Positions 57,919-59,280 of a DNA stretch of 64,000 nt are shown one piece after another. A program made the translations under genes and the position numbers. This DNA is from an uncultured Chlamydiae bacterium (GTDB taxonomy: Bacteria; Chlamydiota; Chlamydiia; Chlamydiales; JAJFMA01), in assembly GCA_963713615.1 (NCBI GenBank), contig CAVQMM010000001.1, positions 2,048,001 through 2,112,000 of the forward strand. The letters run 5' to 3'. The notes under the pieces are model-generated. The model was given only the letters and a program-made list of their open reading frames with translations, searched no databases and had not been told where the DNA came from. How positions within the stretch are numbered: position 1 is the first letter of the stretch; each line of letters opens with the position of its first letter.

Positions 57919-59280
57919 TTACAAAATTACGCAACTTTCTCTGTCCTTACCTTCATAATTAAGGGAGCCTGGGGTCACTTGCCACTCACCACCCTTCTTT
58001 TCTATCCTTGGAGCGACCTCGGTATATGTCACATTTTTAAAGTCTTTCCATGTTCCTTTGCTTTGTAGTGTCAACGAAGCCTTCGCAATACGTTGTTTGT
58101 GTAACTCTACTTCCTGTAGATAGATTTCGTTTGCGGCGCTTAGCTTAGCAGCTTCGGCACTATTGCTCATGCTCAGGCGTTGCAATTCCAAGGCAAATTT
58201 CTTGGTCTCGGCATCCATTTGACCAAGCCTCTGCTTATAAACTTGCTCCAACTCGGCCATTTTGATCTCAGATAGACTTTTTTCTAATTCCACTTTTCGA
58301 TTTAATTCGGCTTGAAAGATTGGCAACCTCAGCCCATCAAGCTCAATCTCTTTCTGAAGGGCTGCTAATTTAGCTTCAGATTGTTCAATCTCTAGATTGA
58401 TATTAGCAGCACGTTCGTTCATCTCTCTCTCCAATTCGATCTGTGCGTGCCGTTCCTGCTCTTCGTTTACTGCAATGACCCCCTCAACGACTTTGGTGAA
58501 AAGCGCAAATACATCTCCAGCAGTCGAAAAGGCCGCTCCTACCTGAATTTTGTTCAATTTATCATACGCTTCGATGGCGTTAGTCCTTTGCTCAGCAGTG
58601 CCGCGGTTTGCTTTCTCAATAACAACTAGCTGCCGCTCTAACACATTAAGCTGTGTTTCAGAAATGTTCGGATTGGTGACAAGGTTTGTCACACGCGCCT
58701 CTCTATCCACCGTCTGCTGCCAAAGCATCTGCAGGAGTTTTTGTAATTCTATAGTTGACTGCTTTAGCGTATCCAAGGACTGCTCTTGAATATTTTCATG
58801 TGCGGTCAATGCACTGAAAAATGTTCGAGAAAGCTCGAACATTTGATCGACGGGCCGACGCTGTGGTGTCTCAGTAATGATCAGGGCGTTATGGTTATTG
58901 TTTGACGCTCCTTCAACAATAGCCATAGCATCGCTGTCATCTCTGTCATCTACATTATTATTGTTGTTCGATCTCTTCATTCCTCCTGGTCCTGTTTGAA
59001 AGAATGAAAGAGAATTGCCGTGGAAATTTATCGCTATACCGCTAAAATACTGCTTTATCTTATCTAAAGAGGCTTCTCTAAGCTCCTGAGTGATTCCCCA
59101 TATGGCTATGGGGGCATCCGACTTTGCGACCCTTGGGTTACCTTCACTTCTTTCCACAGCCTTAAAACCACCTGAAGGACTCCTATACAGATCTACAGAA
59201 CCACTTTTCTGCGGCCATGTTTTGACCAGATCATAACCACGCGTTGAAACATAATTTACAGCTTCTAAACCTACGACCAT
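57919..59280 (-). CDS. QxGxGG-leader family protein A, coiled-coil, C-terminal CaaX box (CVIL)
   Basis: Leader ends FFQTGPGG, followed by MKRSNNNNN; protein ends KDRESCVIL; GGAG RBS. Confidence 0.8.
   Translation of the reverse strand: MVVGLEAVNYVSTRGYDLVKTWPQKSGSVDLYRSPSGGFKAVERSEGNPRVAKSDAPIAIWGITQELREASLDKIKQYFSGIAINFHGNSLSFFQTGPGGMKRSNNNNNVDDRDDSDAMAIVEGASNNNHNALIITETPQRRPVDQMFELSRTFFSALTAHENIQEQSLDTLKQSTIELQKLLQMLWQQTVDREARVTNLVTNPNISETQLNVLERQLVVIEKANRGTAEQRTNAIEAYDKLNKIQVGAAFSTAGDVFALFTKVVEGVIAVNEEQERHAQIELEREMNERAANINLEIEQSEAKLAALQKEIELDGLRLPIFQAELNRKVELEKSLSEIKMAELEQVYKQRLGQMDAETKKFALELQRLSMSNSAEAAKLSAANEIYLQEVELHKQRIAKASLTLQSKGTWKDFKNVTYTEVAPRIEKKGGEWQVTPGSLNYEGKDRESCVIL

Follow-up and report, generated by a model that had tools for sequence, protein, structure and literature searches.

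Protein A, the product of one gene in a four-gene cluster of an uncultured chlamydial genome, may be a host-directed effector precursor from which an N-terminal leader would be cut after Gly100 and whose cargo would then be geranylgeranylated at Cys450. We give this reading, drawn from sequence comparison and structure prediction, a probability of about 0.5. The cluster lies in a 64-kb stretch of DNA, here called the window. Two features at opposite ends of the protein carry the argument: a conserved domain that closes on a double glycine, and a C-terminal CVIL box that is near chance when taken alone and beyond chance at the level of the leader family.

Protein A and its gene cluster

Protein A (P0001) joins the leader to an orphan cargo (Table 1). 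The initial annotation had placed it at 57919-58980, which is correct for the stretch from Met101 to the stop, but the whole ORF spans 57919-59280. What had been read from its letters is present: the C-terminus KDRESCVIL-TAA (Cys codon 57933-57931, stop 57921-57919), a Met directly behind the double glycine, and poly-Asn runs at residues 105-109 and 127-129. Both ends of the gene look real, as the GGGAG site supports Met1 as the start and the terminator-like hairpin (57914-57882), which begins 5 nt past the stop, fits a genuine gene end. Contigs from two other public runs are identical to the GG-Met junction, with zero differences, and the CVIL codons are covered by contigs in none of the four public runs compared. 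Read cover of the locus is patchy and stems from peat runs, two of which are RNA libraries, although such cover does not in itself show expression.

Table 1. Features of protein A and its neighbors, with positions in the window
Feature	Position	Strand	Remarks
Protein A ORF (P0001)	57919..59280	-	453 aa; leader domain, orphan helical cargo, CaaX
GGGAG, Shine-Dalgarno-like site	59289..59293	-	8 nt upstream of Met1; read from sequence
Leader domain of A, aa ~14-100	58981..59241	-	profile match and model; tail QTGPGG
G99-G100-M101 junction	58978..58986	-	predicted cleavage site after G100; codons GGA GGA ATG
Asn5 run, aa 105-109	58954..58968	-	within predicted disordered segment
Long predicted helix, aa 254-407	58060..58521	-	low-confidence model
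CaaX box, C450-V-I-L453	57922..57933	-	sole Cys of the protein
Terminator-like hairpin, 15 bp, A/B intergenic	57882..57914	-	-20.8 kcal/mol, z -2.9
Protein B	56558..57862	-	434 aa; same leader, QRGLGG then G-G-Q-E-S
Protein C	54399..56567	-	711-722 aa; same leader, QRGRGG then G-N-I-E-F
Protein D	53195..54409	-	404 aa; same leader, QKGLGG then G-G-T-A-Q-S-K

The cargo of protein A is known only from a single-sequence model of low confidence (mean pLDDT 55). It begins with a disordered segment and short helices, continues as a near-continuous helix over residues 254-407, and closes with four short strands (residues 417-444) and a loose tail. The long coiled coil proposed earlier thus survives as a long helix, for which a coiled coil is plausible. 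A hydrophobic stretch at residues 253-271 opens the helix, with a moderate hydropathy of 1.43 that does not make it a clear transmembrane helix. A fold search with this low-confidence model gave no match, no Pfam or NCBIfam family matched protein A, and no Rfam family matched anywhere in the window. Protein A was its own sole homolog among 7,995 candidates scored, and was found in none of 40 relatives. The C-terminal 253 residues drew five weak matches in 399 other genomes (E 0.002-0.008), which were taken as chance matches between helical sequences. No free-standing gene for the cargo was found. Protein A carries no signal peptide, and a crude hydrophobicity and lipobox screen of 61 leader-family members did not flag it; the three flagged were P0034, P0061, and P0007, the last with a doubtful lipobox.

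Proteins B, C, and D carry the same N-terminal domain of about 90 residues as protein A. C and D are paralogs (27% identical), and B ends in an Asn5 run followed by W-S. On one side of the cluster stand a YafQ toxin and a ParD/RelB-like antitoxin (52454-52974, - strand), on the other an IS110 transposase (59944-61140, + strand). GC content within the window is lowest (40%) in the 56-58 kb bin, and these features together fit an acquired island. A palindromic repeat element (59480-59680), which contigs from many places share at high depth, lies between IS110 and the cluster. Beyond the toxin locus is a 1,076-aa ORF (49173-52403, - strand) that, judging from its motifs, we take to resemble a fused B12-binding/GTPase/mutase protein of the IcmF type.

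A leader domain on variable cargos

The genome (3.97 Mb, 99% complete) holds six copies of the leader, two of them outside the cluster and ahead of P-loop GTPase cargos. Proteins encoded in other genomes of its order go under the names Chlamydiales bacterium and Parachlamydia sp. AcF125 in the sources, which marks it as chlamydial. A leave-one-out profile built without protein A still finds it at E 1e-4; against a 62-sequence profile in which it is included, its leader scores E 8e-11. Searched against 1.84 billion representatives, the six-copy profile retrieved 61 proteins at E<=0.001, of which six belong to this genome and 55 come from outside it. Of 400 chlamydial genomes scored with a wider profile, 15 gave a match, this one among them and a few doubtful; the three genomes from its genus gave none. 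Two contig matches from a scan with a degenerate leader motif were rejected, having no score against the leader profile. Parachlamydia sp. AcF125 and Endozoicomonas spp. are the carriers known by name, these being the two named clusters among 30 proteins looked up. The cargos behind the leader include astacin, patatin, P-loop GTPase, TPR, and unknown domains, with astacin in 12 of the 51 leader proteins scanned.

Structurally, the leader is predicted to be a folded domain made up of a three-strand meander, a short strand, two helices, and a hairpin, with the GG on a free tail (pLDDT 79, from 62 sequences). No Pfam or NCBIfam model covers it. A fold search of 48,161 chains peaked at Z 4.1, with propeller blades and meanders making up most of the matches; no β-grasp protein stood among the best 50 matches listed, and a relation may exist all the same. 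Foldseek returned nothing at E<=0.001 with the leader model, and the leader profile had no significant match among PDB sequences. Full-text literature searches, whose scope excludes subscription papers and bioRxiv supplements, found no description of this domain or of an RLxGG leader on effectors. The available text of PMC13720258, a 2026 review on effectors that target the ubiquitin system, does not mention it, nor does that of the Babela genome paper (PMC4378268). The domain is apparently undescribed so far.

Several members vary this layout. In one branch (P0061 and P0069-P0083) a signal-peptide-like start is followed by the leader, GGG, and a short Gly-rich hydrophobic cargo that often ends in ATGPV; these proteins presumably resemble abundant proteins of Dependentiae. 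P0061 and P0069 carry tandem leaders. Three Endozoicomonas proteins (P0034, P0065, and P0066) carry the leader internally, with a long region N-terminal to it (the leader spans residues 487-573 in P0034), and there it ends in a perfect PRLRGGG. The two leader genes outside the cluster form one locus (L002, G000:C1:3671747-3676684, + strand); their GTPase cargos are dynamin/AIG1-like and their leader tails read RLKGG and RGLGGGG. Similar genes stand side by side in genomes G144 and G325.

Predicted cleavage behind the double glycine

The domain ends in GG in 59 of 61 family members, with the consensus Y-K-L-Y-I-N-x-R-L-x-G-G; in P0054 the GG was assigned by hand to the second of two pairs. Counted back from the last Gly, position -10 is L/I/V in 54 members, -8 is I/V in 55, and -5 is R in 42, while -4 is L in 27, I/M/V in 16, and G in 15. 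The same register is seen in the last strand of ubiquitin and its LRLRGG tail. The Gly codons at this site are mixed (GGA 20, GGT 10, GGG 7, GGC 7), which indicates that the motif is kept by selection on the protein; a Shine-Dalgarno origin of the GG was rejected on this codon use. The tail of protein A is degenerate and mimics ubiquitin poorly: positions -5, -4, and -3 are occupied by T, G, and P, and it agrees with the family only at the GG and at the hydrophobic positions -10 and -8. Gly at -4 is found in 15 of 59 members, and Pro at -3 in only one besides protein A. Deubiquitinases prefer Leu at -4, and many of them require the folded body of ubiquitin.

The residue behind the GG is biased. 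Among 53 outside members the next residue is Gly in 31 and Met in 13, against backgrounds of 6.2% and 1.6%, and in 49 of the 53 it belongs to the set G/M/V/A/S/T/C (background 34%), which is the stabilising set under the N-end rule. Where Met follows, the residue behind it is F, L, M, or Y in 11 of 13 members, compared with 17% of second residues in the ORFs of the genome. Met at this place recurs on unrelated cargos, and the bias points to a selected N-terminal motif rather than to a relic start. Met followed by a hydrophobic residue is the pattern of NatC acetylation. Protein A, with M-K, departs from it.

The astacin members supply a further line of evidence. Astacins become active only once cleavage frees an N-terminus that is then buried and binds the family Glu, according to the available text of PMC9848320. 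A pattern match finds this Glu in 10 of the 12 astacin cargos. All 12 carry [GA]-[NHC]-[TIV]-[ILVF] directly behind the GG, and these N-termini lie 11, 14, or 17 residues ahead of the conserved Trp (10 in BMP1); in P0036, residue 1 of mature BMP1 aligns immediately behind GGG. Since astacins need a freed N-terminus, the leader appears to occupy the place of the pro-peptide in these members. Taken across the family, we consider it quite likely that the leader is cleaved after GG.

Alternatively, the leader may stay in place as an export, chaperone-binding, or clustering domain, with the GG(G) serving as a flexible joint for swapping cargos and the CaaX box working all the same. In 35 of 59 members another Gly stands behind the GG, more often than any other residue, as would be expected of a Gly linker, and the degenerate tail of protein A agrees with such a role. 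The available text of PMC3482391 describes a comparable case in Amoebophilus, where APD1 and APD2 are constant N-terminal anchoring or clustering domains on variable cargos, and P-loop GTPases similar to the GIMAP/AIG1-type cargos borne by APDs stand behind the leader here. However, a linker leaves unexplained the conserved R-L before the GG, the presence of Met in 13 of the 22 cases without Gly, and the bias toward F, L, M, or Y behind that Met. The N-terminal pattern of the astacins is also fixed to the GG and not to the Trp motif. An uncut leader is therefore rather unlikely.

If cleavage does take place, the enzyme could be bacterial, either the organism's own OTU protein or an unrecognised export-linked peptidase, acting before or during export, with prenylation following in the host. 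The genome does encode an OTU-family protein of 304 aa (G000:C1:651109-652023, - strand, outside the window), a candidate deubiquitinase effector, and many deubiquitinases are encoded by chlamydia-like bacteria, as stated in the available text of PMC13720258. One family branch has Sec-like signal peptides, and a quarter of members have Gly at -4, which suggests a specificity looser than that of host deubiquitinases. Against this, the genome gave no match for C48, UCH, or herpes-tegument-type proteases (the last two searched for without a positive control), and its single C39-like match is a standalone 244-aa ORF. That ORF is not fused to an ABC transporter, on which ground a PCAT double-glycine system was rejected, and no protease gene lies in the four-gene cluster. 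A bacterial protease is accordingly given a small share of the probability.

The C-terminal CaaX box

Genome-wide, Cys at -4 is no more frequent than elsewhere. It occurs in 36 of 2,543 ORFs of at least 150 aa, compared with 22-42 at other positions from -1 to -11, and the strict ending C[VIL][VIL][LMSAQF] occurs in 3 of 3,132 ORFs where 0.85 are expected (P 0.055), so that the CVIL string by itself is near chance. In the leader family the picture changes: of 51 outside members of at least 150 aa, eight have Cys at -4, whereas the other positions from -1 to -15 have it in 0-3 members. This amounts to an enrichment of more than tenfold over a Cys background of 1.1% in family cargos. Leaving out P0047, a truncated relative of proteins of about 700 aa, the count is 7 of 50 (P 2e-6); it is 4 of 39 when the astacin members are counted once (P 1e-3), and 2 of 23 (CTAQ and CNIS, P 0.04) in a second set drawn from chlamydial-genome ORFs, all of these P values being overstated because family members are related. 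The second set comprises 33 profile matches less three duplicates, four open-ended frames, and three without GG.

The CaaX-type endings of the family read CSIL, CSII, CVIL, CKLQ, CTLL, CRLM, and a weak CFFT. They stand on astacin, GTPase, and unknown cargos, which indicates that the pairing of leader and CaaX arose more than once; 43 of 50 outside members are without a CaaX box. Three astacin proteins (P0018, P0041, and P0046) have Cys at -3 instead of -4, and 7 of the 12 astacin members have a Cys among their last four residues.

It is possible that the CVIL of protein A is merely the accidental ending of an orphan, fast-changing gene and that the protein is not prenylated. The genome-wide figures would allow for this, no ortholog was found, and the end of the gene is not covered by independent contigs. 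Yet the protein contains no Cys other than C450, the terminator-like hairpin lies close behind its CVIL codons, the leader family is enriched as described, and the same four letters close both P0054, which likewise ends S-C-V-I-L, and an unrelated ORF of this genome. An accidental ending is thus quite improbable, and we regard the CaaX box of protein A as probably functional. The unrelated ORF is a 328-aa orphan (G000:C1:3557122-3558108, - strand, outside the window) with hydrophobic stretches, an acidic tail, and two adjacent paralogs with different ends; exact CVIL endings number two in the genome where 0.011 are expected, a post hoc count. The CaaX-like ending CEIM occurs on a Pro/Ser-rich orphan of 577 aa that contains an Asn run (G000:C1:2452975-2454708, + strand, also outside the window).

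A CaaX box with Leu at the last position follows the rule for geranylgeranyltransferase I (GGTase-I). The sole Cys, the fit of CVIL to this enzyme, and the enrichment of CaaX behind the leader lend indirect support to host prenylation, and on the preferred reading protein A is likely to be geranylgeranylated at C450 after the predicted cut of the leader. The 15 residues upstream of the box contain two basic and three acidic residues, and neither a polybasic patch nor a second Cys was found there, so any attachment to membranes would depend on the C20 lipid, perhaps aided by the hydrophobic stretch at residues 253-271.

The remaining cluster proteins fare differently. It had been proposed that all four products may be anchored to host membranes, which is unsupported as stated, since none of B, C, and D has a CaaX box and a clean myristoylation motif is found in B only. 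After a cut behind the first GG, B would begin with GxxxS and C would not, and D would do so only with the cut one Gly later. In the family, Ser stands at position 5 in 12 of 35 members that start with Gly, against 7%, and seven of these 12 form one related group; myristoylation of the new N-terminus is plausible for some family members.

The Met behind the glycines had also been taken as a sign that a complete cargo ORF was fused to the leader. This is less likely given the 13 of 53 members with Met and the residues that follow it there, and it is possible for the M-K of protein A itself. A second site of translation initiation at Met101, or a start codon left over there from a captured gene, either of which would let the cargo be made without its leader, is very improbable: AGGA stands 9 nt upstream of its codon and M-K is a common bacterial start, but other members with GG-Met use GGC GGG, GGC GGC, or GGT GGT before ATG, which show no Shine-Dalgarno pattern, Met1 has the better site, the bias behind Met in the family speaks otherwise, and the cargo has no free-standing gene.

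Proposed maturation in the host

The preferred reading, effector maturation within the host, can be set out as a series of steps. Protein A would be exported as a precursor into a eukaryotic host, which is probably a protist; the genome contains the type III export gene SctV, VirB4-type and phage-sheath genes had no match in it, and the matching reads stem from peat runs. The leader would then be removed after Gly100, most likely by a host protease of the deubiquitinase type. As in ubiquitin fusions, the cut would leave the cargo with a defined eukaryote-style N-terminus, Gly or Met. Host GGTase-I would geranylgeranylate Cys450 of CVIL, and the helical cargo, once free, would stay attached to a membrane of the host. 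The weakest step is the last, in which the cargo is proposed to act as a membrane-tethered helical scaffold or tether.

A broader and more tentative proposal, which we consider doubtful in its full form, is that a folded pro-domain, so far undescribed, is common to Chlamydiae and further bacteria that live in association with hosts. It would imitate ubiquitin in the tail alone and be cut by host deubiquitinases, so that cargos become active only inside the host. If true, the eukaryote-style N-termini would comprise the buried end of astacins, G-x-x-x-S for myristoylation, and Met-hydrophobic for N-acetylation, and the pro-domain would often be paired, as in protein A, with a CaaX box for prenylation at the opposite end.

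Comparison with known systems

Ubiquitin fusions and processing signals, such as the ubiquitin-ribosomal protein precursors and the ubiquitin insertions of pestiviruses, are a close parallel to the leader in layout. Both share the LRLRGG register, tandem copies, a cargo directly behind the GG, and a stabilising next residue. The leader differs in that it is bacterial and that its strands and helices are predicted to come in another order than in ubiquitin, and no conjugation genes were found near the leader cluster. Double-glycine bacteriocin leaders, processed by C39/PCAT systems, are likewise cut after GG, and one branch of the leader family has Gly-rich hydrophobic cargos right behind GGG. 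In contrast, the leader described here is a folded domain of about 90 aa that ends in a strand and precedes cargos of up to 2,800 aa, and no C39-ABC fusion was found in the genome.

Amoebophilus proteins with a similar strand-rich leader ending in GG presumably exist, and distant homology is possible. The comparison with APD1 and APD2, made by description only, is one of constant N-terminal domains on highly variable host-directed cargos, which in Amoebophilus include GIMAP/AIG1-type GTPases and lipases (PMC3482391 and PMC3417536, available text). In the same text the APDs follow a signal peptide and lipobox, are called Amoebophilus-specific, and are proposed to anchor or cluster, whereas protein A has no signal peptide; the available descriptions of APD1 and APD2 mention no GG tail or cleavage (PMC3482391, PMC3417536).

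Host prenylation of bacterial CaaX effectors is documented for Legionella AnkB, PelE, PelF, and PelH and for Salmonella SifA, and SifA, PelE, and PelF are reported to be geranylgeranylated (PMC4951486, available text). Salmonella GtgE is a further host-prenylated CaaX effector, as far as the available literature text goes. Like these, protein A has a C-terminal CaaX box and comes from a bacterium of an intracellular lineage. No sequence relation to them was found, protein A pairs its CaaX with a conserved N-terminal leader, and its modification is only predicted. Literature searches turned up no publication about prenylated effectors in environmental chlamydiae.

In AvrPphB and ORF4 of Pseudomonas and NopT of Sinorhizobium, a hidden acylation motif comes to light when an N-terminal segment is removed, as described in the available text of PMC4951486. 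These are self-cutting proteases, whereas proteins A to D have no recognised protease domain, and the cut in protein A would expose Met rather than the Gly of self-processed acylated effectors.

Implications for putative chlamydial effectors

The CaaX box of protein A is a probable new example of an already known type of host-prenylated effector, and a chlamydial case would extend the known range. The leader has a wider reach, as it marks orphan proteins of uncultured chlamydiae and other symbionts as probable effectors and predicts their mature N-termini to the residue. It also suggests that the host sets off a maturation step, which would work as natural ubiquitin fusions do although the ubiquitin fold is lacking. 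If the Amoebophilus-type prodomains proposed in 2012 prove to be homologous, the leader could supply their mechanism.
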